A DNA stretch of 64,000 nucleotides from Candidatus Levyibacteriota bacterium (lineage in GTDB: Bacteria; Patescibacteriota; Microgenomatia; Levybacterales; UBA12049): NCBI GenBank assembly GCA_016186645.1, contig JACPLF010000007.1:126651-190650 (forward strand), read 5' to 3'. The notes under the pieces are model-generated. The model had not been told where the DNA came from. It did not search any database and saw nothing but the letters and a program-made list of their open reading frames with translations. Shown here one piece after another: positions 3,061 to 31,009 of the stretch. The position numbers were made by a program, and so were the translations under genes. Numbering within the stretch: position 1 is the stretch's first letter; each line of letters begins with the position of its first letter.

Positions 3061-3081
3061 TGGGGAATATTATACTATTTT

Positions 3082-4749
3082 CTATGGATTAATGCGGGTG
3101 ACATCAATTGCTTCGTCTCTTTTGCTAAGGATTTCTTTCCAATTTCCTATTTTCTTAAAAATTAACAAAAATGTTGTTGCTTCTTTGACGTTGAAAAGCC
3201 AGGTTAAAAAAAGATAAAAAGAGAGTCCAATTAAACTTGATATTCCGGTCAGAAATATTAAATTTATTGTTCGTGTAGTATCAAAAACTAACTGATCTAA
3301 TAATTTTACAGGAACATATAAGGCAATACCTGTAAAAAAAGTCGCTAAGAAGATTTTAAGCGGAGAGAGAAATAATAAACCCCTAGGGAATCCTTGGACT
3401 TTTTTATTCAGAACAATAATAAGAGTGATTAATTGAAGAATATTGGTTAAGGTAAACGCGAATGCGATACTTTCAATGTTCATCTGCTTGATAATAACAA
3501 AATAATATCCAAGTATTATAAGTAATGTCGTAGAAAAGCCGCTGACAATAAGAGGAATTAACGAGTTGTGTAATGCATAAAATGCGCGATAGAAAAGAAC
3601 AATTAGAGCTTGCGCAAAAATAGAAATAGATAAGAAGGCTAAAATATGACCGGTTAGAACTGTTGCTGGCCAATCAAATTTATCTGCTCCGAAAGCCAGA
3701 CGCACGATTGGTATTCTAAGAACAAGTATAAGAATCGAGATTGGAAGAATAAGATATAGCATTTGATTGAAGCTCGTAATAAAGGTTATTTTAAAATCAT
3801 TAAGATTATTTTTTTCTCGTGAAAGAACAGGAAAAGCTGCCTGGGCAATACTGAATCCAACCAAAGAAATTGGAGCAAACATAAGCGTCTTTGCCGCATT
3901 AAAGAGTAAATGTGTGCGTCCAGGCTCAATCATAAATGCTATAATTGCAGCAAGAATAATTGTCCCTATTTGCTGTACAGCTACTTGAATCGTGCGTGGC
4001 CACATAAGCGTAAATATCTTATTGAGTCCTTTTGATTTGATAAAATTGATTGTCGGTCTAAAAGAAAATCCGACTTTTCTGGCAAGTGGAATTTGAAACA
4101 AAACAAAAATCACAGCACCCAAAACAACCCCAAGGGGAATAGCATAAATTCCGAAAAACTGATTGAATAACAAAATACCAAATATTATTCCTACATTGTA
4201 AAATGCCGCCGCAATTCCAGGTATAAAAAAATGGTTGTATGATTGCAGCATTGCGCTAAAAAAAGTACCAATTATATAGATAAGCTGGCCAACGACAATT
4301 ATCCGCATTAGATTAGCCATTAATTGCATGTCGCCGCTGGAAAAATTATGTCCACCATTAAAAATAGCAAGTAGTTGAGAAGCAAATATAGCAAGAGTTA
4401 GAGAAAGAATAATGAAAATAGCAAGCCCGACAGAAAGAAGCGTTGATGCCATTTCATGCGCAGATTTTTCCTCCCCTTTTACCAAATACTCAGAAAAAAC
4501 CGGTATAAATGCAGATGTAAGCGCTGCTGCAATAGTTAACTGAAAGATAGTGTCAGGAAGAATTGACGCATAATCGTAAATTCCTAAAGTGTTTGATGGG
4601 CCAAAAATAGAGAATGATAACCTCGTGCGGATAAGACCCAGAATATGAGACAAAACAACAGTTGTCATAATAATAAAAGCGGCGGAGAGAATATTGGTTT
4701 GACGAGTAAGAAGTATATTGATACTTTTCTTTAAAAAGTTCTGGGCCAT
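3082..4749 (-). CDS. murJ: lipid II flippase MurJ (MviN family)
   Basis: 555 aa, about 14 predicted TM helices; MurJ-like N-terminal region and conserved Arg/Asp positions; adjacent to cell-envelope genes. Confidence 0.8.
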   Translation of the reverse strand: MAQNFLKKSINILLTRQTNILSAAFIIMTTVVLSHILGLIRTRLSFSIFGPSNTLGIYDYASILPDTIFQLTIAAALTSAFIPVFSEYLVKGEEKSAHEMASTLLSVGLAIFIILSLTLAIFASQLLAIFNGGHNFSSGDMQLMANLMRIIVVGQLIYIIGTFFSAMLQSYNHFFIPGIAAAFYNVGIIFGILLFNQFFGIYAIPLGVVLGAVIFVLFQIPLARKVGFSFRPTINFIKSKGLNKIFTLMWPRTIQVAVQQIGTIILAAIIAFMIEPGRTHLLFNAAKTLMFAPISLVGFSIAQAAFPVLSREKNNLNDFKITFITSFNQMLYLILPISILILVLRIPIVRLAFGADKFDWPATVLTGHILAFLSISIFAQALIVLFYRAFYALHNSLIPLIVSGFSTTLLIILGYYFVIIKQMNIESIAFAFTLTNILQLITLIIVLNKKVQGFPRGLLFLSPLKIFLATFFTGIALYVPVKLLDQLVFDTTRTINLIFLTGISSLIGLSFYLFLTWLFNVKEATTFLLIFKKIGNWKEILSKRDEAIDVTRINP

Positions 4750-7858: not shown

Positions 7859-9402
7859 TGGTGTTTTTATTGATTTTAATTGGCGGATTTTTTCGCTTTT
7901 ACAATTTGGATTGGGGCAGCCCTTTTTATTTTCACCCTGATGAAAGAAATATTGCATCTTCTGTATTACAGATCAATTTCCCCAATCAGATGAACCCTCA
8001 TTTTTTTGCTTATGGATCTTTTCCTATATATTTAATTTATTTTACAGCTTTTTTTTTAAATTTAGTTAGCAAATCCCAACTGACTTTTGAACAAGCGCTT
8101 ATTATCAGCCGGTTCTATTCTGCAATTTTATCCGTACTTCTTATTCCCTCCATTTATTACATAGGAAGCAAATTAGCAAATAAAAACGTTGGGCTTATTG
8201 CAGCAGTATTTTGTACTTTTAGTGTTGGTCTGATTCAATTTTCTCATTTTGGAACATTTGAAATTTGGCTTACTTTTTTAGGTCTTTGGCTCTTTTATTT
8301 TTCCCTAAAATTATTAAAACAATTAGATTTTAAAGATATCATTACGGTTGGACTAATATCCGGACTTCTTGCAGCAACAAAGATTTCCTCTCTACCTCTT
8401 CTGATGATCCCTATGTTTTCTATATTAATAAGTTATTTATCACACAATAAATTATTCAAACATATCTTATATGGCTTGTCGCTAATATTTATCTCCTGCA
8501 TCTTATTTTACGCTGTTTCTCCTTATGTTTTTCTGGATACTTCTTCTTTTATAGCAAGCATGAGGCATGAGTCTTCTGTTGCTTTGGGAACATTATCTGT
8601 TTTTTATACGGGTGGCTTTTTCAATTCTATTCCTGTTATTTTCCAGTTTACGAAAATTTATCCATTTTTACTTAATCCAGCCTTGACTATCTTATTTATT
8701 CCTTCCCTAATTTATGTTATTTATTTTTTTCTGAAAAAACGGCATTATCCTCAATTACTTGTAGTCGCTTGTTTTTTATTACTTTTTTTCTCCCAAGCTT
8801 TTCTTTTTGCCAAATGGACAAGATATATATTGCCCACTTTGCCATTTGTATATTTAATAATTGCAATTTTTATAGATAAATTTATCAATAAAAAAATATT
8901 GCAAATCATATTTCTTATTTGCATAGTTTTTTCATGTTCTTATTTTATTGACAGTTTTGCAAGAAAGGATACCCGTATCCAGGCAAGTCTTTGGGCAAAA
9001 GAAAATATTCCTTCCAGCTCACGAGTATTAAGTGAGGTTTATGATTTGGGAATAGTCCCATTTAATCAATATCTGCCAAATATTTCCTTATTCAATTTTT
9101 ATGACTTAGATCAAACCCCCGACAAACCCTTGGAGCTTGATAAATTCTTATTAGAAAGTGGATATATTATTTTACCTAGTCAGAGAATTATACAAACTCG
9201 TATGATGAATAAAGACGAATTTCCCAATGGATATAAGTTTTACAATGAACTTATAAATGAGAAATTGGGATATAAAAAGGTTTACGAAACTTCTTGTGAT
9301 CTATTCTGCAAAATAATATATCTTGGAGATCCGGTTTTTTCATTCGAGGAAACTGCAAATGTTTTCGACCGCCCTACTGTTTTTATCTTTAAAAGAATGT
9401 GA
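7855..9402 (+). CDS. GT-C fold membrane glycosyltransferase (GT39/PMT_2-like, HPDER loop motif)
   Basis: 515 aa polytopic membrane protein; N-terminal loop FYNLDWGSPFYFHPDERNIASS; paralogous to the next gene. Confidence 0.55.
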   Translation: MMVFLLILIGGFFRFYNLDWGSPFYFHPDERNIASSVLQINFPNQMNPHFFAYGSFPIYLIYFTAFFLNLVSKSQLTFEQALIISRFYSAILSVLLIPSIYYIGSKLANKNVGLIAAVFCTFSVGLIQFSHFGTFEIWLTFLGLWLFYFSLKLLKQLDFKDIITVGLISGLLAATKISSLPLLMIPMFSILISYLSHNKLFKHILYGLSLIFISCILFYAVSPYVFLDTSSFIASMRHESSVALGTLSVFYTGGFFNSIPVIFQFTKIYPFLLNPALTILFIPSLIYVIYFFLKKRHYPQLLVVACFLLLFFSQAFLFAKWTRYILPTLPFVYLIIAIFIDKFINKKILQIIFLICIVFSCSYFIDSFARKDTRIQASLWAKENIPSSSRVLSEVYDLGIVPFNQYLPNISLFNFYDLDQTPDKPLELDKFLLESGYIILPSQRIIQTRMMNKDEFPNGYKFYNELINEKLGYKKVYETSCDLFCKIIYLGDPVFSFEETANVFDRPTVFIFKRM

Positions 9403-11147
9403 AATATCTACCATTATTTTTAATTTTAATTCTTGCTTTTATCTTGAGGGTATACGGACTAAATTGGGATCAAGGATTTCATTTGCACCCTGATGAACGG
9501 GCAATTGTAATTGCCTCTATACCCTTACAACTTCCTACCAATATTTCGGAACTTTTATCTGTCCAAAGCCCTTTAAATCCTCACTTTTTTGCATATGGGA
9601 GTTTACCAATGTATCTTCTTAAAGGGGTTGCTGTTCTCTTAACACCTTTTTATCCTCTTGCCTCATCATATGATCATATTAATTTAGTCGGACGTTTCCT
9701 CTCTGTTATTTTCGACATGGGAACTATTCTTATTATTTTTCTTCTGGGACAAAAACTTTTTTCAAGAAAAGTTGGACTAATAGCTGTATTTTTTTATACT
9801 ATAAGTGTTTTCCCTATCCAAGCTGCGCATTTTTATGCTGTTGATACCCCTCTTACTTTCTTTATTTTAGCAACTCTTTATATGCTTATTAGTTTCTATG
9901 AAAATCCTACAAAGAAAAAAGCTCTTTTTGTGGGGATATTATTTGGAATGTCTCTTGCAACGAAAACAAGTGCTTTAGTTCTGATAATGTCAATTGGAGC
10001 AGCATTAATTTCAGATTTTGTTTTGATATTTCTAAGAATTCCCCACCGACCTCATATTTGGTTTCCTCACATCCCTAAACTCATAAAAAAACTTTTAATA
10101 GAAGGTTTAATTATTTTAATATCAACAGTTATTTCTTTTATTATTTTTGAACCTTATGCTCTTTTGGATTTTAAGGAATTCTCAAGACAAACTCTGGAGC
10201 AATCGCAAATGACACATAATCCTTTCGCTTTCCCTTTTACCCTTCAGTACGTTGGAAAAATTCCATATTTCTATGAATTAAAAAATATTTTCTTTTGGGG
10301 TCAAGGACCGATTATTGCGACAATTTCTTTTTTGGGAACACTGTATATTAGTTTTCACCTAATAAAGAGACACCTCGGATGGTGGCGAAGCAACGACTTC
10401 GACTCCTCCGAGGTGGACAAGAGATGGGCACAAGAACTTATTCTTTTAATTTTTTTCTTAAGTTATTTTATTGTGGTTGGAAAATTTGCAGTCGGCTGGA
10501 TGCGCTACATGCTCCCTCTCTATCCTCTCCTTTCTCTTTTCGCAGCAGTTCTTGCTTATAAACTTCTAATTTTAATTAAGCGCAAATTTGGTTATTGGTA
10601 TTTATTTGTAGTATTGGTATTTATTTGTAGTATTTTATACTGGCCTTTATCTTTCGTGAATATTTATACAAAACCAAACACTCGCGTTTTGGCATCTGAG
10701 TGGATTAATCAAAATATTCCAGTAGGACCAACTCTTGCAATAGAACACTGGGATGATTCCCTTCCCTTGTTTGGCCAAGAAAAATATAAAATGCTTACAC
10801 TTCCGCTTTATGATCCCGATACTTCTGAAAAATGGAAAACAATAAATCAGGAATTATCAAAAACCGATTACATTATTATTGCTTCCAATCGACTTTATAC
10901 GCCACTTATGCGTTTGACAGATTGCAAAAAATTACCGGTGGGAAGATGCTATACGCAAACTTCTGAATATTATAAAAAACTATTTAGCGGATCTCTGGGT
11001 TTTAAGAAAGTAGCTGAATTCACATCGTATCCTAAATTTAGCTTCCCACTTGTCAAGTGGGAGCACGAAATAAATGATTCCTCAGCAGATGAATCTTTTA
11101 CGGTATACGATCATCCAAAAGTCCTAATTTTTCAGAAAATTCCTTGA
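9399..11147 (+). CDS. GT-C fold membrane glycosyltransferase (GT39/PMT_2-like), tandem paralog
   Basis: 582 aa; VYGLNWDQGFHLHPDERAIVIAS loop motif; ATGA start/stop overlap with the upstream paralog. Confidence 0.55.
   Translation: MKYLPLFLILILAFILRVYGLNWDQGFHLHPDERAIVIASIPLQLPTNISELLSVQSPLNPHFFAYGSLPMYLLKGVAVLLTPFYPLASSYDHINLVGRFLSVIFDMGTILIIFLLGQKLFSRKVGLIAVFFYTISVFPIQAAHFYAVDTPLTFFILATLYMLISFYENPTKKKALFVGILFGMSLATKTSALVLIMSIGAALISDFVLIFLRIPHRPHIWFPHIPKLIKKLLIEGLIILISTVISFIIFEPYALLDFKEFSRQTLEQSQMTHNPFAFPFTLQYVGKIPYFYELKNIFFWGQGPIIATISFLGTLYISFHLIKRHLGWWRSNDFDSSEVDKRWAQELILLIFFLSYFIVVGKFAVGWMRYMLPLYPLLSLFAAVLAYKLLILIKRKFGYWYLFVVLVFICSILYWPLSFVNIYTKPNTRVLASEWINQNIPVGPTLAIEHWDDSLPLFGQEKYKMLTLPLYDPDTSEKWKTINQELSKTDYIIIASNRLYTPLMRLTDCKKLPVGRCYTQTSEYYKKLFSGSLGFKKVAEFTSYPKFSFPLVKWEHEINDSSADESFTVYDHPKVLIFQKIP
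10374..10413. repeat. hairpin element (cctcgga ... tccgagg) in-frame within the GT-C gene
   Basis: 7-bp inverted repeat flanking cgacttcgactcc, a core shared with the uvrD/guaA element family; encodes ...LGWWRSNDFDSSEVDK.... Confidence 0.5.
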
Positions 11148-12224: not shown

Positions 12225-12791
12225 ATGAATATTGGATTTGATTTAGATAAAATATTTATTAATTATCCTCCTTTTGTTCCATCAAAAATTATTGATTTAT
12301 TATATAAAGGAAAACCGCGTGCGGAATTGGAATATCGTATACCGTCAAGATTGGAGCAGATTATTAGAATATTCAGCCACCACCCTATATTTAGATCTCC
12401 TATAGCTGAAAACATGAATTATGTTAAAGACTTAGCTTTACAGAATGAAAATAAATATTATCTTATTTCCAGTAGATTCAGCTTTTTGGAGAAAAAAACA
12501 ACAGAACTTATAAAGCGTCTCAGCCTAGATAAAATATTTAATGCGATGTATTTCAACTACAATAATGAACAGCCTCATCTTTTTAAAAACGGAGTGCTAA
12601 AGAAGTTAAAACTTGATATGTACATTGACGATGATTTGCAACTTTTGGAATATCTAGGGAATAAAAATCCTAAAATCAAATTTTTCTGGTTGAATAAGAA
12701 GTTTAGCAGATCATTGAAAAAAAATTTATTTGCTATAAAAAACATTTCGGAAATGTTCACCCCGCACCAAAATGGTGCAGGGTTCAAATAA
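12225..12791 (+). CDS. hypothetical protein, possibly degenerate HAD-like (NT5C-type) hydrolase
   Basis: MNIGFDLDKIF resembles HAD motif I (DxD); YIDDDL resembles motif IV; weak. Confidence 0.3.
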   Translation: MNIGFDLDKIFINYPPFVPSKIIDLLYKGKPRAELEYRIPSRLEQIIRIFSHHPIFRSPIAENMNYVKDLALQNENKYYLISSRFSFLEKKTTELIKRLSLDKIFNAMYFNYNNEQPHLFKNGVLKKLKLDMYIDDDLQLLEYLGNKNPKIKFFWLNKKFSRSLKKNLFAIKNISEMFTPHQNGAGFK

Positions 12792-15069
12792 TATGCTCCT
12801 CTCGGATTTGCTTAATATTTTCCAATGGTGGGCAACATTTTTTTTTGCTGGCGTTATCTTTATTCCCATAACAACTTTGATCTTTCCCAACTTTTTCGAT
12901 AAGGGTTATATTTTTGCGAAAGTTATAGGAATAGCATTAATAAGTTATACAATTTTTGTTTTAGGGTTTTTAAAACTACTTCCTTTTGAAACGCAAAATC
13001 TCTACATAATTCTAGGATTGTTTATTCCTATCAATTTATTGATTGGGAGAAAAAGTAAACTCAATTTCAAGCAGATACTCCCAATAATTATTATAGAAGA
13101 ATTTTTATTCGCAGCAATTCTTTTGTTTTGGTCTTTTATCCATGCCCACCAACCGGACATTCATGGGCTGGAAAAATATATGGATTATGGATTTATAAAT
13201 TCTATTTTAAGAGCTAAGTATTTTCCTCCTTTAGATATGTGGCTTACACCCTACCCTATTAACTATTATTATTTTGGGCATTTAGTAACTGCTGTTTTGA
13301 CAAAGCTTTCATTTCTTTCGTCATCAATTACTTTCAATTTAACGCTTTCAACAATCGCTGCATTTACTTTTACAGGTGCATTTTCAATTGGCGCAAATCT
13401 CCTATATTTTTTAAACAAAAACGGTAAAAATTCGAAATTACCAATAATCGGAGGCATTCTTACTGGACTTATACTAGGTTTTGCAGGAAACCTGCATACA
13501 GTTTATTTATTTTTCAAGCCTTATGAAAATGAAAATCCTGTACCTTTTTGGCAGTTAATCTTTTCTCCTAATACATTTCCAAATAGCTATTGGTATCCAA
13601 ATGCAACGCGCTTCATCGAAAACACTATTCACGAATTTCCAATCTATTCCTCTGTTGTTTCCGATCTGCATGGCCACGTTCTAGACATACCTTTTGTACT
13701 GCTAACAATAGCTATTCTTTTATCAATATTTTTTAGATTTAATAATCAATCCTCAATTCAAAATTTAAAATTCAAAATTCAAAGTGACAATTCAAAATTC
13801 AAAATCTTAAACTTTGAGTTTCCGTTTTTAACTTTTAACTTTTCACTTTTAACTTTGCTAGCATTTTTGCTAGCAATTATGTATATGATCAATGCTTGGG
13901 ACGGAATAATATATTTCTTATTGACAGCAATCGTAATTGCCTATGTCAAGCTAAAGTCAATAATACAAATTTCTCCCCACCAAAGTATTAAGTATTATGT
14001 ATCAAGTATTAAACAATCAAAGTACCTAATACCTACTACTTTATACTTAATACTTATTTTTGTTGGGTTTTTCCTTTTTACTTTACCTTTTAATCTTAAT
14101 TTCAAGCCTTTTGCTTCGGGGATTGGCGTACTTTGTGCGCCAAAATTTCTAACAGACATAGGACAATTTGGACCTTTCCTTTTTGAGCCAGACCATTGCC
14201 AACATTCACCTTTATGGCAATTATTTATTCTATATGGCTTTTTCTATTTTTGGATTTTTGGATTTTTAGTTTTTAAAATTAGAAATTTTTCTCCACCCGA
14301 TATCTTTGTATTGATTCTAATCCTGTTATCCGCTCTTCTTATTATCATTCCTGAATTTATATATGTAAAAGATATTTATCCTGCACACTACAGAGCAAAC
14401 ACCATGTTCAAACTTGTATATCAGTCATTCATGATGCTTTCTATCTCCTCGGGCTATATAATGGTTAGGCTAGTATCAAGTATTAAGTATTACGTATTAA
14501 GTATCGAGAAAAAAATTCTTTATGTCTTATACTTTATACCTGCTACCTTATACTTAATACTGGTATTCTTTTATCCTTATTTTGCGATTAATTCCTACTT
14601 TGGAAATTTAAAAACTTACCATGGTCTTGATGGAACAAGTTATCTTAAGCCACTTTATCCAAATGACTATGAAGCCATTTTGTGGATTAATAAAAACATT
14701 AAAGGACAACCAATTATTCTTGAAGCGCAGGGAGATTCGTATACCGACTATGGTCGCGTATCAGCCAATACCGGACTACCAACTGTTTTAGGATGGACTG
14801 TTCATGAATGGCTTTGGCGCGGAACCTATGATATTCCTTCCCCTCGGATCGAAGAAGTTGCAAAAATGTACGAATCCGATAATTCGAAAGAGATAGAATC
14901 CTTGTTAAAAAAATATAAAGTTTCGCTTATATTTATTGGTGAGTTAGAAAGACAAAAATATCCAAATCTTAATGAGGAAAAATTTCAGCTTTTAGGAAAA
15001 ACTATTTATCAAAAAGGCGATACAAGGATATTCCAGTCGATCACTGAAGAGGACAATCGCCAATTTTAA
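12772..15069 (+). CDS. large polytopic membrane protein (possible GT-C/DUF2298-like), carrying in-frame repeat insertions
   Basis: 765 aa, many TM helices, C-terminal soluble domain; internal tandem repeats and two inverted-repeat insertions (see repeat features). Confidence 0.45.
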   Translation: MVQGSNNMLLSDLLNIFQWWATFFFAGVIFIPITTLIFPNFFDKGYIFAKVIGIALISYTIFVLGFLKLLPFETQNLYIILGLFIPINLLIGRKSKLNFKQILPIIIIEEFLFAAILLFWSFIHAHQPDIHGLEKYMDYGFINSILRAKYFPPLDMWLTPYPINYYYFGHLVTAVLTKLSFLSSSITFNLTLSTIAAFTFTGAFSIGANLLYFLNKNGKNSKLPIIGGILTGLILGFAGNLHTVYLFFKPYENENPVPFWQLIFSPNTFPNSYWYPNATRFIENTIHEFPIYSSVVSDLHGHVLDIPFVLLTIAILLSIFFRFNNQSSIQNLKFKIQSDNSKFKILNFEFPFLTFNFSLLTLLAFLLAIMYMINAWDGIIYFLLTAIVIAYVKLKSIIQISPHQSIKYYVSSIKQSKYLIPTTLYLILIFVGFFLFTLPFNLNFKPFASGIGVLCAPKFLTDIGQFGPFLFEPDHCQHSPLWQLFILYGFFYFWIFGFLVFKIRNFSPPDIFVLILILLSALLIIIPEFIYVKDIYPAHYRANTMFKLVYQSFMMLSISSGYIMVRLVSSIKYYVLSIEKKILYVLYFIPATLYLILVFFYPYFAINSYFGNLKTYHGLDGTSYLKPLYPNDYEAILWINKNIKGQPIILEAQGDSYTDYGRVSANTGLPTVLGWTVHEWLWRGTYDIPSPRIEEVAKMYESDNSKEIESLLKKYKVSLIFIGELERQKYPNLNEEKFQLLGKTIYQKGDTRIFQSITEEDNRQF
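13755..13855. repeat. tandem simple repeats (aattcaaa)n then (ttttaac)n in-frame within CDS
   Basis: aattcaaaatttaaaattcaaaattcaaagtgacaattcaaaattcaaaatc ... ttttaacttttaacttttcacttttaacttt; encodes QNLKFKIQSDNSKFKILNFEFPFLTFNFSLLTL. Confidence 0.7.
13984..14055. repeat. inverted-repeat element (agtattaagtat ... atacttaatact) inserted in-frame, copy 1
   Basis: Termini agtattaagtatt and atacttaatact are reverse complements; a diverged second copy lies at 14472-14562 in the same gene. Confidence 0.55.
14472..14562. repeat. inverted-repeat element (agtatcaagtattaagtatt ... tacttaatact), copy 2
   Basis: Same terminal inverted repeats as copy 1; encodes VSSIKYYVLSIEKK...ATLYLIL paralleling ISPHQSIKYYVSSIKQ...TTLYLIL. 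Confidence 0.55.
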
Positions 15070-16183: not shown

Positions 16184-16781
16184 TATTCGACATTTGAGTA
16201 AACTTTTTTACATTCTCCGATGTTACACTTCCTCCATAAAGAACATATTGGACTTTGTAATTTTTTTTGAAAAATGCAGCAACTTCTTGTGCACTTTCCG
16301 CAGTATCAGGGCGTCCTGTTCCTATTGCATTAATAGGTTCATATGCGACTATAGCGATATCCGAAGGAATCTTTGTCTCGATTCCCTGGACACAAAAAAT
16401 TGGGGCCAAACCATGCTGCTTTGATAACTCCGCTTTTTTAAACAATATTTCATCATTTTCATTAAAATTCGTTCTTCTTTCAGAATGACCAATGAGGACG
16501 TAGTCTGCAAATTCTTTAATCTGCCTTGCAGATACCTCTCCAGTATAGGCACCTTCATCAAAAGGGGAAACATTTTGCGCCCCAATCTTAAATCCTAATT
16601 CATAATTCTTGATTACCGATTCAATTTCAGAAAGAAGAGTAAAAGACGGACATATAATTATCTCCTTATTCATAATTCGTAAATCATAATTCTTAAATCT
16701 CTGAAACCAAAAATCAGCTTCAGAACTCGTGAAATTCGACTTCCAATTAGCCACAATAAAGGTCTTTTTCATATGGTACAA
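16113..16781 (-). CDS. tpiA: triosephosphate isomerase
   Basis: IVANWKSN..., AYEPINAIGTG, LYGGSV motifs; 222 aa. Confidence 0.8.
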   Translation of the reverse strand: MYHMKKTFIVANWKSNFTSSEADFWFQRFKNYDLRIMNKEIIICPSFTLLSEIESVIKNYELGFKIGAQNVSPFDEGAYTGEVSARQIKEFADYVLIGHSERRTNFNENDEILFKKAELSKQHGLAPIFCVQGIETKIPSDIAIVAYEPINAIGTGRPDTAESAQEVAAFFKKNYKVQYVLYGGSVTSENVKKFTQMSNIDGVLVGGASLDAQEFYAIIKNA

Positions 16782-18677
16782 TTACAACATTATACTATGG
16801 ATCAAGACTTTCTAAAAGACTTAAATCAGGAACAACAAAAAGCAGTTTTGCAGACTGATGGTCCGGTAATCATTCTGGCAGGAGCAGGATCTGGAAAAAC
16901 AAGAGTGTTAACGTATAAAGTCATGTATTTAATACAAGATATGAAAATTGATCCCTTCAATATTCTAATGGTAACCTTTACCAATAAAGCTGCTAATGAA
17001 ATGAAAGAACGTGTCCAAAAAATGGGTGCAATTCCGACCGTTGCTACTTTTCATTCTTTATGCGCCAAAATTCTGAGGATTGAAGGAAAACATATAAACC
17101 TTCCTTCGCAATTCGCAATATATGATACGCAAGATAGTCTGGAGGCTATAAAAGAAGCAATGAAAAGGCTGAATATTTCTATAAAAGATTACAAACCGTC
17201 CTCTATTCTGGCGAATATATCGCAGGCAAAAAATGAACTTATCAATGATTCCGAATATTTAAAATATGCAAGAGGGAATTTCCAGGAAAAAGTTGCAAAG
17301 ATTTATCCTGTGTATCAAAAAATTTTAGCAGAAAACCATGCTCTTGATTTTGACGATCTTCTTTCTAAAACCGTGTTATTGTTTGAAGAAAATTTAACAA
17401 TTCTTGAAAAATATCAAGATCGTTTTCGTTATATCTTGATAGATGAGTACCAGGATACAAATCGAGCCCAATATATCTTGACTAAAAAATTAGCCAAAAA
17501 GTGGAATAATGTGTGTATTGTTGGAGATTTTTCCCAAAGCATATATAGCTGGAGAGGTGCGGATTTTACCAATCTATCCCGTTTCAAGGAGGATTTTAAA
17601 AATACAAAAACTTTTTCTCTTTCCCAAAACTATCGATCTACACAAAAAATTTTGGATAGCGCCTCATCGGTAATATCCAAAAATACAACTCACCCAGTAT
17701 TAAATCTTTGGACGGAAAATCCGAACGGTGATGAAGTTGTTATTTTTGAAGCACAAAATGAGCAGCAAGAAATAGAATTCGTAGTAAATACAATAGGAGA
17801 ATTTAGACTACAAGAAAAGAAAGATTTTAAATTTTCCAATAATGCTGTCCTGTATAGGACTAACGCTCAATCGCGAGTTTTGGAAGAAGTTTTTTTACAT
17901 AATAGTATTCCGTATGTCCTAATTGGGGGTACACGGTTCTACGAAAGAAAAGAAATAAAAGACGTACTCGCTTATTTGAGAGCATTGGATAACAAAAAGG
18001 ATAAGATATCTTTAAAGCGCATTGAAAAAATTGGAAAAAGAAAAATGGAGAAATTTCTAGAATTTCAAGAGAAAGTAAACGTCACTCTGGGGAGGTCGAC
18101 GCTTCGACCGACTCCAAAATCCGATTCTGGACAAGCCAGAATGACAACATTAGAACTTCTGGACAAAGTGCTAAATGTAACCGATTACCTATCTTTATAT
18201 GATGACCGTGACGAAGAAGATAGACAAAGACTGGAAAATATTAAGGAACTTCGTTCTGTAGCTTTTGAATTTTCCGATCTTACTAATTTTTTAGAAAATG
18301 TCTCCCTTGTTGAACAAGAATATATGCCGGATCCTTCGGCAAGCTCAGGACAAGCAAAGAAAGATGCTGTAACTCTTATGACACTACATGCAGCTAAAGG
18401 TCTTGAATTCCCATACGTATTTATGATCGGCATGGAAGAAGGACTTTTTCCACACTCTCGCTCATTAATGGAGAAGAATGAACTTGAGGAAGAAAGAAGA
18501 CTCTGCTATGTAGGAATGACTAGGGCTCGGAAAAGGCTCTTTTTAACCTATGCTAGAAGAAGAATATTCTTTGGTCAAAAAATTTCAAATATCGTTTCCA
18601 GATTTATTTTGGAACTTCCTGAAAATGTAATTGAACAAAATATTTCCTTAACTAACAATTATGAAAGCCTTAACTAA
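16773..18677 (+). CDS. uvrD: ATP-dependent DNA helicase UvrD/PcrA
   Basis: Walker A LAGAGSGKTRVLT, DEYQDTN, helicase motifs throughout; 634 aa; contains two in-frame hairpin-repeat insertions. Confidence 0.85.
   Translation: MVQLQHYTMDQDFLKDLNQEQQKAVLQTDGPVIILAGAGSGKTRVLTYKVMYLIQDMKIDPFNILMVTFTNKAANEMKERVQKMGAIPTVATFHSLCAKILRIEGKHINLPSQFAIYDTQDSLEAIKEAMKRLNISIKDYKPSSILANISQAKNELINDSEYLKYARGNFQEKVAKIYPVYQKILAENHALDFDDLLSKTVLLFEENLTILEKYQDRFRYILIDEYQDTNRAQYILTKKLAKKWNNVCIVGDFSQSIYSWRGADFTNLSRFKEDFKNTKTFSLSQNYRSTQKILDSASSVISKNTTHPVLNLWTENPNGDEVVIFEAQNEQQEIEFVVNTIGEFRLQEKKDFKFSNNAVLYRTNAQSRVLEEVFLHNSIPYVLIGGTRFYERKEIKDVLAYLRALDNKKDKISLKRIEKIGKRKMEKFLEFQEKVNVTLGRSTLRPTPKSDSGQARMTTLELLDKVLNVTDYLSLYDDRDEEDRQRLENIKELRSVAFEFSDLTNFLENVSLVEQEYMPDPSASSGQAKKDAVTLMTLHAAKGLEFPYVFMIGMEEGLFPHSRSLMEKNELEEERRLCYVGMTRARKRLFLTYARRRIFFGQKISNIVSRFILELPENVIEQNISLTNNYESLN
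18086..18146. repeat. hairpin repeat element family A (ggtcgacgcttcgacc + gattctggacaagccagaatgaca) in-frame in uvrD
   Basis: Near-identical to 54802-54858 in guaA (shared gactccRaaatcgattctggacaagccagaatgacaa); two stem-loops; encodes GRSTLRPTPKSDSGQARMTT. Confidence 0.7.
18329..18356. repeat. repeat element family B (ggatccttcggcaagctcaggacaagca) in-frame in uvrD
   Basis: 29-nt near match, about 3 mismatches, to the dnaG copy at 50347-50376 in reverse orientation; encodes PDPSASSGQAKK. Confidence 0.6.
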
Positions 18678-27717: not shown

Positions 27718-28530
27718 CTAGACCGCCTCGAGGGTGGACGAGGGTGGGCTTTTTTTCATTTCTTCAAAACGACCACCTATATACCTAGGAGATTTCGGCG
27801 GAAGCGAACGCGTAGAGCCCAGGAAGCTACCATCCAACGATAATCTGTAAGAGACATAAAACCCATAACAAATGAGACGAGAACCAAGCCATGACCATGT
27901 ATTTACATCGAAACGTTCTCCCCTTAAAACTCTACTTGCTTCAGAGGCGAGGATATATGTATTTTCTCGTTGCGGAACGTATCCTTGTCTTATGGAGTGT
28001 TTCTTCAGATCTCTTCGAGTAGTACCAAGATTTGGAGCATCAAGAGTTGCTTCTACTTTAACCCATACGCCTTTTGTATTAGTATCAGATCTATCCTGCA
28101 CATTAGCACCTTTTTGAACTGAAGAATTTTGTATACTCGGACTAAGATACATTTGTTTCAATTTTGCTAGTCCTTCTTGTCCCATAAGCTCGCCTGGAAT
28201 ATAGACCAACATCGAAGGAACCGCGTTGCCTCCCGTGTCTTTCATTGGCAATCTTATTTCTTCTTCTGTCCAGTTGCAGTCGGGCACAGAAATCTCAAGT
28301 CCTACTCTTTTACCATCTACTTGCAATTTTACCCGCCAATAATTAGTAAGAGCTTCTGGAGAAAAGGGATTTGCTTTAAGTTCTGCAATTGCTTCGCCCA
28401 AAACATCAGATGGCAAAGGGTTTGTCTCATCTGGGACTACTGCTTTGGGCACAGAAGATTCTGGTACGCCTCGCATTCCTGGAATATTACCTTTAAATCT
28501 TCGTGCTAATATCTCTAGAATTGCTGGCAT
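27718..28530 (-). CDS. hypothetical protein, compositionally atypical (noticeably higher GC than neighbours)
   Basis: 270-aa ORF with balanced amino-acid composition and no recognisable motifs; sits between glycerate kinase and tkt. Confidence 0.35.
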   Translation of the reverse strand: MPAILEILARRFKGNIPGMRGVPESSVPKAVVPDETNPLPSDVLGEAIAELKANPFSPEALTNYWRVKLQVDGKRVGLEISVPDCNWTEEEIRLPMKDTGGNAVPSMLVYIPGELMGQEGLAKLKQMYLSPSIQNSSVQKGANVQDRSDTNTKGVWVKVEATLDAPNLGTTRRDLKKHSIRQGYVPQRENTYILASEASRVLRGERFDVNTWSWLGSRLICYGFYVSYRLSLDGSFLGSTRSLPPKSPRYIGGRFEEMKKSPPSSTLEAV

Positions 28531-28608: not shown

Positions 28609-29466
28609 ATGGTAGATTTAACTTCGGAAAAATTAAAAGATTTAGAAAACAAAGCAAATAAGATAAGACAGATGATTATTGAAATGCTTGTTGAGGCGGG
28701 ATCAGGACATTCAGGAGGACCGCTCGGAATGGCAGATATTTTTACGAGTTTTTATTTTCATATTTTAAATCACGACCCAAAAAATCCAAGTTTGCCTGAC
28801 CGAGACAGACTAGTTTTGTCCAATGGACATATTTGTCCTGTTCAATATGCCACAATGGCTTTGGCCGGATACTTTCCGATTGATGAACTAAAAACTTTAA
28901 GAAAAATAAATTCCCGTTTGCAAGGACATCCTCATAGAAGCTCTCTTCCCGGCGTCGAAACAACTTCAGGGCCTTTGGGTGAAGGATTGTCTCAGGCAAT
29001 TGGAATAGCATTAGCCGGAAAGATGGACAAAAAAAACTATCGTGTTTACTGTCTGACATCTGACGGAGAACATGAGGAAGGAAATACATGGGAAGCAGTT
29101 ATGTTTGCGGCAAAAAATAAATTGAATAATTTAATTCAGGTTATAGACCGCAATTATATTCAAATAGATGGCAGAACAGAAAATGTTATGCCTCTTGATC
29201 CTTTAAAAGAAAAGTATGAATCTTTTAATTGGAATGCAATAGAGGTAGATGGAAATGATATTAAGAGTTTTATTGTGGCTATTGAAAAAGCCAAATCAAT
29301 GTTGGATAAACCAACTATTATAATTGCGAAAACAATTCCGGGAAAAGGTGTGAGTTTTATGGAAAATGATTATCATTGGCACGGCAAGCCGCCAAATAAA
29401 GAAGAAGCCGAGAAAGCTCTAGTTGAACTACAAGCATTGAGAGAAAAAATTATAAAAGGAGAGTAA
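28609..29466 (+). CDS. tkt: transketolase, N-terminal (TPP-binding) subunit
   Basis: GSGHSGGPLGMADI TPP motif; 285 aa; partner C-terminal subunit at 29944. Confidence 0.85.
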   Translation: MVDLTSEKLKDLENKANKIRQMIIEMLVEAGSGHSGGPLGMADIFTSFYFHILNHDPKNPSLPDRDRLVLSNGHICPVQYATMALAGYFPIDELKTLRKINSRLQGHPHRSSLPGVETTSGPLGEGLSQAIGIALAGKMDKKNYRVYCLTSDGEHEEGNTWEAVMFAAKNKLNNLIQVIDRNYIQIDGRTENVMPLDPLKEKYESFNWNAIEVDGNDIKSFIVAIEKAKSMLDKPTIIIAKTIPGKGVSFMENDYHWHGKPPNKEEAEKALVELQALREKIIKGE

Positions 29467-29943
29467 CGATTCTAATATACGAATGTATACTAATAATACG
29501 AATAGAAAAATAAATAAAGACAAACTGATATTTCCCGAACTTTCTTATATGTTAACGGGAATTTGTTTTGACGTCCATAACGCTCTGGGCAGATTCTCTA
29601 AAGAAAAACAATACTGTGATGTGCTGGAAGAAAAATTAAAAAACTCTAACATTCCTTATGAAAGAGAATTAAGAGTAAAAAATACAGGCAACATATTGGA
29701 TTTTCTAATAGATAATAAAATTATAGTGGAAATAAAGGCCAAAAGGATACTTCTAAAAGAAGACTATTATCAATTACAGCGTTATCTTCAAGTACTAAAC
29801 ATGAAACTTGGTTTATTAATAAACTTTCGGAACCGCTACTTAAAACCCGCAAGAATTATCAAAATAGACACAGATGCAAGAAAAAAATTCGTACAACAGT
29901 AGTATTAGTATAATTAGTATGCATTAGTATATTCGTATCGCTT
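29467..29943 (+). mobile_element. small inverted-repeat-flanked element carrying a PD-(D/E)xK (GxxExxY/PDDEXK_3-like) gene, inserted between the tkt subunit genes
   Basis: Left end cgattctaatatacgaatgtatactaataatacgaat and right end cattagtatattcgtatcg match the two halves of the 71-nt palindromic element at 30939-31009. Confidence 0.5.
29483..29902 (+). CDS. PD-(D/E)xK nuclease-fold protein, GxxExxY (PDDEXK_3) family
   Basis: ELSYMLTGICFDVHNALG ... ILDFLIDNKIIVEIKAKRIL ... LQRYLQVLNMKLGLLINF matches the family pattern (ELSY..IG.A..VH..LG; DLLV..KIIVELK; LNYLK..GLKLGLLINF); D-x(n)-E-x-K core. Confidence 0.7.
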   Translation: MYTNNTNRKINKDKLIFPELSYMLTGICFDVHNALGRFSKEKQYCDVLEEKLKNSNIPYERELRVKNTGNILDFLIDNKIIVEIKAKRILLKEDYYQLQRYLQVLNMKLGLLINFRNRYLKPARIIKIDTDARKKFVQQ

Positions 29944-30933
29944 ATGCTTAATCCTGATTTAAAACTCAATCAAAAATTATTTGATCAAGACGTAGAAGTC
30001 AAACCCACTCGCGCGGGCTATGGCGAAGGACTTTTGGCACTTGGAGAAAAAAATCCCAATGTTGTGGCTCTTAGTGCGGACCTGACCGAGTCAACATACG
30101 CTCATCTTTTCGCAGAAAAATATCCTGATAGATTTTTTCAATGCGGTGTTGCCGAACAGAATATGGCAGCAATTGCTGCGGGTCTTGCAGTTAGCGGAAA
30201 AATTCCGTTTATCTCCTCCTACTCAACTTTTTCTCCCGGTAAAAACTGGGAAACTATTCGAACAACTATTATTTATAACAACGCCAATGTAAAAATGGCA
30301 GGCCATCATGCGGGAATAATGACAGGACCCGATGGCGCGACTCACCAGGCAACTGAAGATATTGCAAGCGTGAGAAGCTGGCCAAACATAAAAATTCTTG
30401 TTCCTTGTGACAGTATCGAGGGGAAAAAAGCAACAATTAGCGCTTCCGAAATAACAGGCCCCATCTATCTTCGTTTTTCTCGAGATAAAACGCCAATTAT
30501 AACAACCCCTGAGACTCCATTTGAGGTAGGCAAAATTCAAACTTTTTGGACAACGGAAAATCCTGTTGCCACTATTTTTGCAACAGGGTACATGCTTTAC
30601 TATTCAATTTTGGCCGCGAAAGAATTAGAGATAGATGGAATAAAAGTATTAGTCGCAAATGTCTCAGCAATAAAACCAATGGATCAAGAAGCTGTACTTT
30701 CTTATGCTAAGAATACTAAAGCATTTGTTACTGTTGAAGATCATCAAATAACAGGCGGGCTTGGCGGTGCAATTGCAGAATTTCTAGCTAAATTTATTCC
30801 AACGCCAATGGAATTTATCGGACTAAAAGACACATTTGCAGAATCGGGCGCACCAAAAGAGCTGATTGAAAAATATGGGATGGGGAAAGAAAGTATAAAA
30901 GAAGCAGTAAGAAAAGTGATTGGAAGAAAATGA
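29944..30933 (+). CDS. tkt: transketolase, C-terminal (pyrimidine-binding) subunit
   Basis: 329 aa; Pyr domain and C-terminal domain motifs (FQCGVAEQNM, GPDGATHQ). Confidence 0.85.
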   Translation: MLNPDLKLNQKLFDQDVEVKPTRAGYGEGLLALGEKNPNVVALSADLTESTYAHLFAEKYPDRFFQCGVAEQNMAAIAAGLAVSGKIPFISSYSTFSPGKNWETIRTTIIYNNANVKMAGHHAGIMTGPDGATHQATEDIASVRSWPNIKILVPCDSIEGKKATISASEITGPIYLRFSRDKTPIITTPETPFEVGKIQTFWTTENPVATIFATGYMLYYSILAAKELEIDGIKVLVANVSAIKPMDQEAVLSYAKNTKAFVTVEDHQITGGLGGAIAEFLAKFIPTPMEFIGLKDTFAESGAPKELIEKYGMGKESIKEAVRKVIGRK

Positions 30934-30938
30934 TTATG

Positions 30939-31009
30939 CGATGCTAATATACTAATTCGTACCAATAATACGAATTTGTATCATTAGTAACATTCGTATA
31001 TTGGCATCG
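30939..31009. repeat. 71-nt nested palindromic element (cargo-less copy of the GxxExxY element ends)
   Basis: cgatgctaatatac ... gtatattggcatcg terminal inverted repeats, 1 mismatch; inner aattcgta/tacgaatt pair; fills the whole tkt-FAD oxidase intergenic space. Confidence 0.6.

Follow-up and report, generated by a model that had tools for sequence, protein, structure and literature searches.

Short palindromic repeats with a CGTC or TGTC tag, stems that start in AT, and dimers in which the tags face outward have been grouped as CGTC REPs; RPE-4, RPE-6, and the Neisseria repeat dRS3 are counted among the members, and intragenic copies are found in repair and replication genes, UvrD included (PMC3733652). 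The motif ATGAC is a mark of RPE-4/6/7 (PMC3767692). In Neisseria, the target of the nuclease SsnA, the NTS (CGTCATTCCCGCG..GCGGGAATC), is cut only as single-stranded DNA (ssDNA); the three bases 5' of its palindrome govern cleavage by SsnA, and the C 3' of it is the most critical for binding (PMC11893778). The NTS-ssnA-NTS arrangement has been described as insertion sequence (IS)-like, the demonstrated role of SsnA in Neisseria is restriction of incoming ssDNA during transformation, and present or past mobility of Ssn cassettes has been raised by the Ssn authors as a hypothesis only (PMC11893778).

In a Candidatus Levybacteria genome, the essential genes uvrD and guaA each contain an in-frame copy of one double-hairpin repeat of 57 to 67 nt. 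The element is composed of two inverted hairpin units with tags outward, is free of target-site duplication, and has the layout Y-GTC-ATTCTGG-(variable tip)-CCAGAAT-C-(spacer)-G-ATTCTGG-ACAAG-CCAGAAT-GAC-R, the outermost Y and R being flanking bases. A sequence-only reading of the window (the whole 64-kb stretch of DNA analyzed) had reported a repeat common to uvrD and guaA, and this repeat is real: one 25-mer, GATTCTGGACAAGCCAGAATGACAA, is found without mismatch at 18123-18147 (+) and again at 54835-54859 (+), and 0.00 copies would be expected by chance (dinucleotide shuffles). The 38-nt core given in that reading was likewise shared, but not without gaps, since the two versions of its GACTCC(A/G)AAATC part differ by a single substitution and an indel of 1 nt (aaaatcCgattc against agaatcgattc); its coordinates were 1 to 2 nt off and are corrected to 18110-18147 and 54823-54859. 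The element also extends further than had been noted, over 18080-18146 in uvrD and 54802-54858 in guaA, the shared left end having been missed. This left end, GTCA(C/T)TCTGGGGA, lies at 18081-18093 and 54803-54815, and because it is present in the uvrD and guaA copies alike, both are complete elements. A profile built from 64 family members had only these two matches in the window (guaA, E = 1.8e-18; uvrD, E = 6.8e-15). Single-strand folds of the element were more stable than shuffles (z of -3.0 to -4.8), and Rfam searches at gathering thresholds of the window and five loci returned tRNAs only, with no family matching the element.

The uvrD copy (67 nt, 18080-18146, +), delimited by its sequence, the profile match, and an alignment with 63 other copies, has the same orientation as uvrD and is translated as VTLGRSTLRPTPKSDSGQARMT. 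Its left hairpin unit (18080-18121, +) consists of flank C at 18080, tag GTC at 18081-18083, arm A at 18084-18090, a variable loop at 18091-18113 with a tip hairpin (GGTCGA/CGCT/TCGACC, 18094-18109), arm B at 18114-18120, and the conserved C at 18121. The right unit (18123-18146, +) has G at 18123, arm C (ATTCTGG) at 18124-18130, loop ACAAG at 18131-18135, arm D (CCAGAAT) at 18136-18142, tag GAC at 18143-18145, and flank A at 18146. The sequence ggtcgacgcttcgacc, which had been taken for a second stem-loop preceding the element in uvrD, proved to be the variable tip of the first hairpin of the element and no separate feature. Arms A and B are imperfect in this copy (ACTCTGG and CCAAAAT), pairing of the first hairpin is lost in the fold, and the uvrD copy is evidently the older or the more degenerate of the two.

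The guaA copy (57 nt, 54802-54858) has its canonical orientation on the + strand, opposite to guaA, and is translated from the - strand as CHSGLSRIDSGVTSFPRMT. It comprises a left unit (54802-54834, +), with flank T at 54802, tag GTC at 54803-54805, arm A (ATTCTGG) at 54806-54812, loop GGAACGAAGTGACT at 54813-54826, arm B (CCAGAAT) at 54827-54833, and the conserved C at 54834, and a right unit (54835-54858, +), with G at 54835, arm C at 54836-54842, loop ACAAG at 54843-54847, arm D at 54848-54854, tag GAC at 54855-54857, and flank A at 54858. This copy is intact, with four perfect arms, the exact 11-bp terminal inverted repeat already noticed in the sequence-only reading, and a fold z of -4.8. 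In both copies, the units are 0 to 1 nt apart with no gene between them.

Both host ORFs are intact, as had been stated, according to the ORF list and its translations. uvrD (16773-18677, +) encodes a UvrD/PcrA-type helicase of 634 amino acids (aa), with the element at residues 437-458, and its product matches, at 100%, a UvrD-helicase protein of Candidatus Levybacteria in which UvrD Pfam domains are present. guaA (53866-55446, -) encodes a GMP synthase of 526 aa, with the element at residues 197-215; its placement in the linker between the GATase and ATP-pyrophosphatase (ATP-PPase) domains was borne out, the insert lying between the GATase H-x-E motif (H177/E179) on one side and the SGGVDS P-loop (residues 236-241) on the other. 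As the encoded peptides, DSGQARMT and SGLSRIDSGVTSF had been given correctly. uvrD reads the element on one strand and guaA on the opposite strand, as unrelated peptides; the similarity is therefore at the DNA level only, and the earlier view that protein homology does not explain it stands. The window, which also encodes the pilus assembly proteins PilN and PilO, comes from a metagenome-assembled genome.

The element was found in at least 118 genome loci, several genomes having five or more copies, and genome and metagenome scans taken together gave more than 200 loci. The element is multicopy over many independent assemblies, and about half of the copies are in ORFs. Among the matches listed, the family is dispersed mainly in genomes of the Candidate Phyla Radiation (CPR). 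The canonical set comprised 64 copies, 62 public ones (among the matches listed) and the two from the window, and all 64 are tags-outward heterodimers with the four-arm layout (among the matches listed). GTC 5' of arm A and its complement 3' of arm D were present in both window copies and in 64/64 canonical copies, the tag having been required in the search that gave the 62 public copies and not for the flanks of the uvrD copy. The four arms hardly vary over the family, two of them having been set by the search, and the variable tip is not reliably alignable. The base before GTC is C in 31 and T in 27 of the 64 (CGTC in the uvrD copy, TGTC in the guaA copy); thus, the flanking base at -1 is Y in 58/64, and the one at +1 is R in 59/64 (among the matches listed). 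At positions unconstrained by the search pattern, C follows arm B in 60 copies and G precedes arm C in 63. The stem is 7 bp, the right-unit loop 5 nt, and the left-unit loop 14 to 26 nt in most copies, with a single C as the tail, and the right loop reads ACAAG in 52 of the 64 canonical copies (among the matches listed). No target motif was found in these 64 copies (among the matches listed) beyond the Y/R pair extending the palindrome.

Host genes in CPR bacteria include those for UvrD, GuaA, DNA ligase, Pol I, and tRNA synthetases. The genes for DNA ligase, an EamA transporter, and TrmD in different CPR genomes contain a 55-nt element that is identical in all three, even in its variable tip. 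In uvrD, 6/6 synonymous third positions of the right unit are unchanged in three orthologs versus 61 to 65% third-position identity elsewhere in the gene; together, the identical copies and this invariance are consistent with recent spread or constraint. The hairpin tips differ among the three "orthologous" uvrD copies, which one insertion followed by simple vertical descent does not explain well. In viral contigs, the right unit had three matches only, all in contigs of higher GC content and all in hybrid dimers with other stems, and these matches give no evidence of phage-borne spread in CPR. A rule of orientation by replication strand, suggested by the location of both window copies on the + strand, is not supported, pairs within 8-kb loci being concordant in two cases and discordant in three; GC skew over the window was uninformative. 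Two "host ORFs" resembling translated rRNA (L037 and L046) proved not to be rRNA; both are probably spurious.

The units carry the NTS features required by SsnA, namely, an unpaired GTC 5' of the palindrome, a stem starting with AT, and a C immediately 3'. In these respects, the tag reading (C/T)GTC, they are like the Ssn motifs (NTS/SRM; Chenal et al. 2025, PMC11893778), and the Ssn system is also alike in its inverted units around a single-domain GIY-YIG gene of ~95 aa and its dispersed gene-less copies. They differ in the stem, 7 bp here (ATTCTGG) versus 9 to 10; in the left unit, which has a long, variable, self-pairing loop; in the hosts, which are CPR/Patescibacteria, a group that PMC11893778 does not mention; and in the share of copies in long ORFs, 47% here (among the matches listed) versus 2% reported for N. 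meningitidis (PMC11893778). The CPR proteins differ further in being known from sequence alone. The published SRM pattern, HGTCWYN(0-2)YYVSBRHN(0-5)WNVSBRGN(0-2)RNCYNB, failed to match the window copies exactly, whichever strand was read, because the stem is 7 bp and not 9 to 10; the best fit needs three substitutions. The hairpins that flank an ssn-like gene at another locus (L081) also fail this pattern, and the pattern, built from 29 genomes, appears to be too narrow for variants with 7-bp stems.

The GTCAT...ATGAC ends, the AT-start stem, and the tags-outward dimer correspond to the published signature of the CGTC REPs, with RPE-4 and RPE-6 among them (PMC3733652, PMC3767692). With the four CGTC families (CGTC-1 to -4; Di Nocera et al. 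2013, PMC3733652), the element shares the CGTC/TGTC tag, the AT start, the 5-nt right-unit loop, the predominance of "HH" dimers (heterodimers here), the variable spacer, and in-frame copies in repair, replication, and translation genes. It differs in the stem (7 bp versus 8 to 9), the tail (a single C versus CCA), the loop of one unit (14 to 26 nt versus 4 to 5 nt), and the host phylum, which is new; moreover, no dedicated enzyme was found in PMC3733652, whereas a nuclease gene is enclosed by the units of the present family. The element would fit the CGTC superfamily and none of its four described families.

The likeness to Rickettsia RPEs proposed in the sequence-only reading, that of in-frame selfish palindromic elements, holds: the copies are insertions, are multicopy, and bear the CGTC-REP signature. 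Shared with the RPEs are in-frame palindromic repeats in housekeeping genes of a reduced genome, absence from orthologs, peptides in exposed regions, the ATGAC/GTCAT terminal motif, and the occurrence of different families at the same ortholog site ("hot spots"). The peptides use the same reading frames as published CGTC/RPE peptides, starting with VIP.., RHSG.., or SF.. and ending with ..GMT or ..RND (PMC3733652), and parallel the published RPE-6 dimers, e.g., SFLRKQES...LDSRFRGND, in a comparison by end motif and frames. As judged from sequence, the resemblance is deeper than the similar "behaviour" first noticed, extending to the ends, the stem start, the dimer arrangement, and the peptide frames. 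The differences lie in the stem and loop sequences and in the hosts, which are uncultured small-genome bacteria largely from groundwater metagenomes in place of intracellular alphaproteobacteria; at about 100 to 150 bp, RPE-1, -2, and -3 exceed the element in length, and their sequences are unrelated. The family is new, and so is its host group, but the kind of element was already known from Rickettsia and Neisseria.

Long ORFs contained 30 of the 64 canonical copies (47%, among the matches listed) versus 81% of random sites (p = 1.6e-9). Intragenic copies had the orientation of the gene in 26 cases and the opposite one in 4 (24:4 when counted as ~28 separate insertion sites; p = 1.8e-4), and the exit frame DSGQARMT outnumbered FWTSQND by 23 to 3; three of the four copies in the opposite orientation are in membrane proteins. 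Statistically, copies in genes persist only where they are tolerated, i.e., with an open frame, mostly in the hydrophilic ...DSGQARMT orientation and frame, and in flexible surface loops or linkers. As with the Rickettsia RPEs, and as the frame and orientation bias suggests, the copies are probably translated within the host protein.

Ortholog alignment, which the sequence-only reading had proposed as a check, identified the element peptides as lineage-specific insertions that are missing from most UvrD and GuaA orthologs. The family occupied the uvrD site in 10/120 UvrD homologs, 110/120 being without it, and the guaA site in 9/120 GuaA homologs. GTCAT-tagged elements of at least four families were present in the GuaA linker of 35/120 homologs. 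Over the same alignment columns, this linker has 35 residues here versus a median of 29 in element-free CPR orthologs; the median is 55 in the nine homologs with the element family. At the DNA level, the element in uvrD takes the place of a variable linker of 7 to 10 codons, and the flanks are not both intact; the closest element-free orthologs have a different 7- to 10-codon linker, and the exact junctions are therefore unreadable. In AlphaFold models, both window peptides are low-confidence coil between helices: in UvrD, the segment corresponds to residues 429-450 of the AF2 model and is mostly coil (433-450), with pLDDT of <50 over 433-447; in GuaA, residues 199-210 are coil, with pLDDT of <50 at 201-210.

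A metagenome scan for two ATTCTGG-type units 290 to 320 nt apart yielded 96 loci, of which 84 enclose a GIY-YIG gene of ~95 aa, and the enclosed ORFs scored above the cut-off for Pfam PF01541. In cassettes oriented by their gene, the long-loop unit was upstream and the ACAAG unit downstream in 29 and the order was reversed in 2; the commonest order is that of the gene-less element. The Levybacteria assembly GCA_016182235.1 contains a full cassette (L224; ssn gene at 3001-3309 of this locus and at 28176-28484 of JACOXT010000003.1), in which the right unit encodes the C terminus of the Ssn protein (...DSGQARMT-stop), and also a gene-less copy (L073); a UvrD with the element (P0069) very probably belongs to this assembly. 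A Daviesbacteria genome had the same cassette layout. No ssn gene lies within the 64-kb window, and all-versus-all clustering of 1,780 ORFs near elements gave no family in more than seven loci, the small GIY-YIG cluster comprising three. A PDB sequence search with the Levybacteria Ssn protein found no relative, and no NCBIfam model names these small GIY-YIG proteins. The CPR proteins may be likened to Neisseria SsnA (cd10448-type), a comparison that rests on size, domain, and gene context.

With good confidence, each copy can be regarded as a gene-less derivative, similar to a miniature inverted-repeat element (MITE), of a hairpin-ssn-hairpin cassette. Upstream in the complete cassette is the unit YGTC-ATTCTGG-(long structured loop)-CCAGAAT-C; it is followed by a gene encoding a single-domain GIY-YIG protein of about 91 to 102 aa and then, downstream, by the inverted unit G-ATTCTGG-ACAAG-CCAGAAT-GACR. 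How the element moves we infer as follows. Each unit would fold in ssDNA and be bound by the cognate Ssn-type nuclease of the lineage, which would cut a few bases outside the tag; nuclease and host repair together would then spread the units, leaving no target-site duplication. No Ssn protein is known to carry out transposition.

CPR bacteria probably depend on DNA uptake, PilN and PilO are encoded in the window, and, from one CPR class to another, the stems, tag, and 3' C are much better conserved than the host genes. These points, like the modulation of Neisseria natural transformation by the NTS/SsnA pair (PMC11893778), would suit a host-beneficial structural signal kept by selection, acting either as Ssn sites that restrict incoming ssDNA or as mRNA or DNA hairpins that modulate expression. 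However, element presence is patchy between close orthologs in the UvrD and GuaA alignments, families are interchangeable at the same permissive sites, and copies are rarer in genes than at random sites and are decaying, as in the unpaired first hairpin of uvrD; the RNA form is further opposed by the lack of RNA binding by SsnA (PMC11893778) and of any Rfam family match. A host signal as the whole explanation is therefore unlikely, and a domesticated role could coexist with selfish cassettes.

It is very improbable that the elements are REPINs, i.e., doublets of REP hairpins mobilized by RAYT, an IS200/IS605-type tyrosine (Y1, HUH) transposase acting on ssDNA hairpins. The form is REPIN-like, an inverted doublet of short hairpins with a variable spacer and no target-site duplication (PMC3116915), and, as in REPIN/RAYT systems and IS200/IS605 PATEs, the doublets are nonautonomous with presumed recognition of ssDNA hairpins, and an associated enzyme gene in single copy lies between repeats. 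The tag, however, is YGTC and not GTAG, and the gene flanked by exactly these hairpins encodes a GIY-YIG nuclease instead of an HUH tyrosine transposase. No RAYT was detected near the elements: a phmmer search with E. coli RayT of all window ORFs and the 118 element loci (~0.9 Mb) gave nothing credible, the best hit (E = 0.0098) being a membrane protein, and the study of Di Nocera et al. turned up no RAYT with CGTC repeats at its sides (PMC3733652).

Equally little probability attaches to a classical MITE, in which an insertion sequence with an internal deletion would be mobilized by a DDE transposase through the 11-bp terminal inverted repeats. The ends of the guaA copy, TGTCATTCTGG/CCAGAATGACA, are perfect, and the elements are small and dispersed, but a 2-bp direct duplication was present in 0/64 copies and one of any length from 2 to 7 bp in at most one (among the matches listed), and no transposase gene is recurrent near the elements or present in the window. 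What look like terminal inverted repeats are, moreover, simply the outer arms of a pair of hairpin units, and such units were also found alone and in hybrid dimers. An artifact or coincidence, whether an assembly chimera, conceivable for a metagenome-assembled source, or a shared protein motif, is refuted by the presence of the element at orthologous positions in independently assembled genomes and at more than 200 other loci, and by the opposite strands, unrelated peptides, and chance expectation of the 25-mer.

Derivation of the gene-less copies from hairpin-ssn-hairpin cassettes leaves room for a stronger and more tentative proposal, possible but doubtful at present, that the cassettes are autonomous mobile elements of an IS-like class so far unrecognized, in which a GIY-YIG single-strand nuclease takes the place of the transposase, and that the gene-less doubles are their MITEs, still active in CPR and colonizing essential genes in frame. 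In-frame palindromic "selfish DNA" within genes has so far been regarded as a curiosity of Rickettsia; the same superfamily is now found in CPR housekeeping genes. The elements lengthen CPR proteins, and their low-complexity peptides (VILG...SGQARMT, HPERSEGS...) can lead annotation, alignment, and structure prediction astray; the elements also show where conserved enzymes have flexible sites that tolerate insertion. The CPR Ssn proteins may have new specificities of ssDNA cleavage. Within one lineage, the exact ends of the gene-less element also border a nuclease gene, which gives circumstantial support to the mobility hypothesis of the Ssn authors, and if the cassettes are truly autonomous, they would provide, in very small genomes, a testable answer to what moves CGTC-type REPs, RPE-4/6/7, and dRS3, a question open since 2013.

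In the window (35.7% G+C), the exact 25-mer GATTCTGGACAAGCCAGAATGACAA occurred twice on the + strand, at 18123-18147 and 54835-54859, against 0.00 copies expected from shuffles. Upstream of it, both copies carried GACTCC[A/G]AAATC with one substitution and a 1-nt indel between them, so the 38-nt core described in the sequence-only reading exists but contains a gap, with coordinates 1 to 2 nt off. The copies also shared a left end (GTCACTCTGGGGA at 18081 in uvrD and GTCATTCTGGGGA at 54803 in guaA), and the complete elements occupied 18080-18146 within the uvrD ORF (16773-18677, + strand) and 54802-54858 within the guaA ORF (53866-55446, - strand), both ORFs being unbroken, as had been noted. 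What had been taken for a separate second stem-loop in uvrD was the tip of the element's first hairpin. Since uvrD and guaA read the element on opposite strands and the conceptually translated peptides differ (VTLGRSTLRPTPKSDSGQARMT in UvrD and CHSGLSRIDSGVTSFPRMT in GuaA), the likeness lies at the DNA level only. Single-strand folds of both copies were more stable than those of shuffles (z, -3.0 to -4.8), and a profile of the element family matched the window at these two copies only.

The element is multi-copy. When one genome per species was scanned with the pattern GTCATTCTGG-N25-55-CCAGAATGAC, at least 118 loci were found, and 62 of the matches listed, together with the two window copies (n = 64), had one common architecture: two inverted hairpin units with tags outward, GTC-ATTCTGG-(loop)-CCAGAAT-C-(0-28 nt)-G-ATTCTGG-ACAAG-CCAGAAT-GAC, flanked outside by Y (58/64) and R (59/64). 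At positions left free by the search pattern, a C followed the left hairpin in 60/64 copies, a G preceded the right hairpin in 63/64, and the right loop was ACAAG in 52/64. The left loop (modal length, 14 nt; range, 4 to 26) was often self-pairing and often contained GCGAAGC; we take templated "quasipalindrome correction" during replication to be a plausible source of such self-pairing, hypervariable tips. Hosts among the listed matches were mostly Candidate Phyla Radiation (CPR) bacteria, namely, Gottesman-, Roizman-, Davies-, Curtiss-, Levy-, Blackburn-, Berkel-, and Saccharibacteria; different stems with the same ends were found in Eubacteriales, Adhaeribacter, and others. Three unrelated genes of different CPR genomes, encoding a DNA ligase, an EamA-type transporter, and TrmD, shared a 55-nt element, GTCATTCTGGTAAGCAAAGCGCATCCAGAATCGATTCTGGACAAGCCAGAATGAC, without a single difference, variable tip included (loci L022/L044, L066, and L080, 4932-4986); this identity suggests that a "master copy" spread recently, possibly from one genome to another. 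At Gottesmanbacteria JACPZF01 loci L006, L028 (two copies), L104, and L062, the element was nested in another palindromic repeat with flanks gacgaagcaatc...gattgc...; at four or more loci these copies did not differ even in their flanks, and the composite was therefore copied as a unit. IMG/VR viral contigs L125-L127 (46 to 58% G+C) carried the right unit in hybrid dimers such as TGTCATTCCCG-CTTGT-CGGGAATC, in which stems covaried while tag and loop were conserved.

Long ORFs contained 30 of the 64 canonical copies, versus 81% of sites drawn at random from these loci (P = 1.6e-9), and copies are thus depleted in genes, although they are intragenic far more often than ordinary REPs. Intragenic copies were oriented 26:4 along the gene, or 24:4 over the roughly 28 separate insertion sites (P = 1.8e-4), with membrane proteins hosting three of the four in opposite orientation, and the two open exit frames, DSGQARMT and FWTSQND, were represented 23:3. 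The simplest reading of these biases is selection on the translated peptide. Host proteins, presumptively assigned by eye, included TrmD, ATP-dependent DNA ligase, prepilin peptidase, ArgS, PheT (two sites), Pol I, RNase H, a second UvrD site, NusA, TsaE, RsmI, NadD, and SufD.

Alignment with orthologs identified the element-encoded peptides as insertions. Among 120 UvrD homologs (67 to 100% identical), 10 had at the corresponding site an ATTCTGG-family element that reads (N)V[I/T]LG...[S/A/Q]ARMT, and the remainder had a short variable linker there (median aligned segment, 14 residues). The GuaA linker between the GATase and ATP-pyrophosphatase domains held an ATTCTGG-family element in 9 of 120 homologs and other GTCAT...ATGAC-tagged families in 26 more, encoding, for example, HPERSEGS...QND, HPEFISGS...QHD, or HPDRV...LGMT, for a total of 35 occupied linkers and at least four tagged families. 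Across homologs P0125-P0236, at least four tagged families, with these three peptides and VILG..ARMT, occupied the UvrD site and the linker of GuaA (residues 197-215 in the window protein); the shared sites are either insertion hot spots or places where one element replaces another. When the DNA of the five closest uvrD genes was aligned at codon level, the element stood in place of a 7- to 10-codon linker rather than between intact flanks. Three element-bearing uvrD orthologs had identical arms and different hairpin tips and spacers, and all six synonymous third positions in the right unit were unchanged, against 61 to 65% third-position identity in the rest of the gene. AlphaFold2 models built from 60-sequence alignments predicted both inserted peptides to be low-confidence coil between helices, with pLDDT <50 at residues 433-447 of the UvrD model and at GuaA residues 201-210, the latter between helices 186-198 and 211-226.

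The gene-less element was linked to a nuclease cassette. At a Saccharibacteria locus, a GIY-YIG ORF lay about 370 nt from a canonical element and had inverted hairpins, TGTCATTCTGA-ACTTGA-TCAGAATC, on both sides; their stem is a sister of the element's, from which one compensated base pair separates it. A metagenome scan with GTCATTCTGG-N5-20-CCAGAATC-N290-320-GATTCTGG found 96 loci, 84 of which encoded between the hairpins a GIY-YIG protein of about 95 aa; Pfam PF01541 scored above its cut-off. In the commonest gene-oriented layout (29 cassettes versus 2 reversed), the long-loop unit was upstream and the ACAAG unit downstream, the same order and polarity as in the gene-less element. Homologs of the protein numbered 2,320 at E <= 1e-10, with named sources in Curtiss-, Davies-, and Levybacteria and Parcubacteria. 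Levybacteria GCA_016182235.1 carried both a cassette, tGTCATTCTGGGGAGTTCCGCTTAGCGGGACGACTCCAGAATCagagaaatATG...(102 aa)...GATTCTGGACAAGCCAGAATGACATAG, and a gene-less copy (L073), and it very probably also carries the element-bearing UvrD P0069; a Daviesbacteria genome had the same cassette layout. The Ssn-like nuclease of GCA_016182235.1 (L224, 3001-3309) ended in ...SDSGQARMT*, its last eight residues, DSGQARMT, being encoded by the right unit and matching the peptide added to UvrD by the element; the ssn-like gene of Daviesbacteria L226 stopped before the hairpin.

The kind of element is already known. CGTC-tagged REPs, whose members include Rickettsia RPE-4 and RPE-6 and Neisseria dRS3, have CGTC or TGTC tags, A-T pairs at the first two stem positions, and 4- to 5-nt loops, form mostly "HH" dimers with tags outward, lack a dedicated transposase, and occur in frame in repair, replication, and translation genes; their tabulated peptides are VIPAKAGI...IPAFAGMT, RHSGGGRNL, and SFPRKRES...DSRFRGND (Di Nocera et al. 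2013, PMC3733652). The ATTCTGG family uses the same three entry frames (here VILG/RHSG/SFW) and two exit frames (ARMT/QND). ATGAC is the hallmark of RPE-4/6/7, and different RPEs share insertion sites among orthologs (Matsutani et al. 2013, PMC3767692). The Neisseria NTS, CGTCATTCCCGCG..GCGGGAATC, contains dRS3 and is bound and cut only as single-stranded DNA by SsnA, a 94-aa GIY-YIG nuclease whose cleavage, a few bases upstream within the variable flank, is controlled by three bases 5' of the palindrome, the key binding base being a C 3' of it; bacterial ssn genes are flanked by NTS-like motifs, a layout termed IS-like (Chenal et al. 2025, PMC11893778). That study does not mention Patescibacteria, and our literature search found no paper tying these repeats to CPR. 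Within this kind (CGTC-REP/Ssn-related motif, RPE-4/6/7-like in-frame palindromes), the element forms a new family, with a 7-bp ATTCTGG stem and a long-loop/ACAAG heterodimer, and CPR are a host group new to the kind. Both the observation and the RPE-like interpretation of the sequence-only reading were upheld.

Other repeats and inserts were also observed. A second, unrelated-looking GC-rich repeat of about 23 to 24 nt, CCTTCG[G/A]CA[A/G]GCTCAGG[A/G]CAA[G/A]C, which has GGACAAGC in common with the main element, lay in three housekeeping genes: uvrD (18333-18355, +; translated PSASSGQA, in a modeled loop with pLDDT <50), the DnaG primase ORF 49137-50960 (50350-50372, -), and the 5' end of the IMP dehydrogenase ORF 55443-56621 (56589-56611, -). 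In the close UvrD ortholog P0002, a related 24-nt block, CCTTCGGCTTCGCTCAGGACAGGT, was a clean 8-codon insertion (PSASLRTG) at a neighboring position, and 25 of 120 UvrD homologs had a repeat of one or the other type. AT-rich repeats, both direct and inverted (CGATTCTAATATACGAAT...; 29467-29503, 29904-29944, and 30935-30975), bracketed a PD-(D/E)XK nuclease ORF (Pfam PDDEXK_3; 29483-29902, +) that lay between separately encoded transketolase halves (N-terminal, 28609-29466; C-terminal, 29944-30933); this ORF may be a further small inserted cassette. The PMT_2 membrane glycosyltransferase ORF 9399-11147 contained in frame, at 10371-10415 (+), a perfect, GC-rich 9-bp hairpin, CACCTCGGA...TCCGAGGTG, with GCGAAGC in its loop; this hairpin is probably an inserted copy from one more palindromic family. 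Units resembling AGTATTAAGTATTA formed AT-rich inverted repeats (13980-14560) within the 3' part of the DUF2298 ORF 12772-15069, outside the region matched by the profile, and this part may be a spurious ORF call or a further repeat insertion. Neither the 922-aa ORF 36785-39553 (+), in which degenerate Tyr/Thr/Pro-rich repeats (YTTPxYYTPP; nt 38080-39400) form a long array, nor the next, 836-aa ORF (39605-42115) had a Pfam match. A membrane protein of a Patescibacteria MAG (locus L077, 7248-8000, -) contained VILSVTRNLLRMRDSSNKLRDSSPAKRVGNDKK, another in-frame GTCAT-tagged-type repeat, which illustrates that insertions of this sort are common in CPR proteins.

The window elements are multi-copy insertions made up of both ends of a hairpin-ssn-hairpin cassette and lacking its gene; they bear the determinants needed by SsnA, and the copies surviving inside genes have been filtered for frame, orientation, and structural context. 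An artefact, a functional RNA or DNA signal, a DDE-type MITE, and a REPIN/RAYT system were considered as alternatives; a 2-bp target duplication was present in 0 of the 64 copies examined, and no RAYT or other transposase linked to the elements was found in the window or the element-bearing loci. The sole rival left standing is a domesticated role, which may exist alongside selfish spread. Under the cassette reading, a cognate Ssn would recognize the elements as single-stranded DNA and its activity would disperse them, and intragenic copies would be translated. A specialist would not be astonished. The way the gene-less element relates to the cassette, the very high share of intragenic copies, and the small size of the host genomes are useful, testable additions that bear on what moves such repeats.
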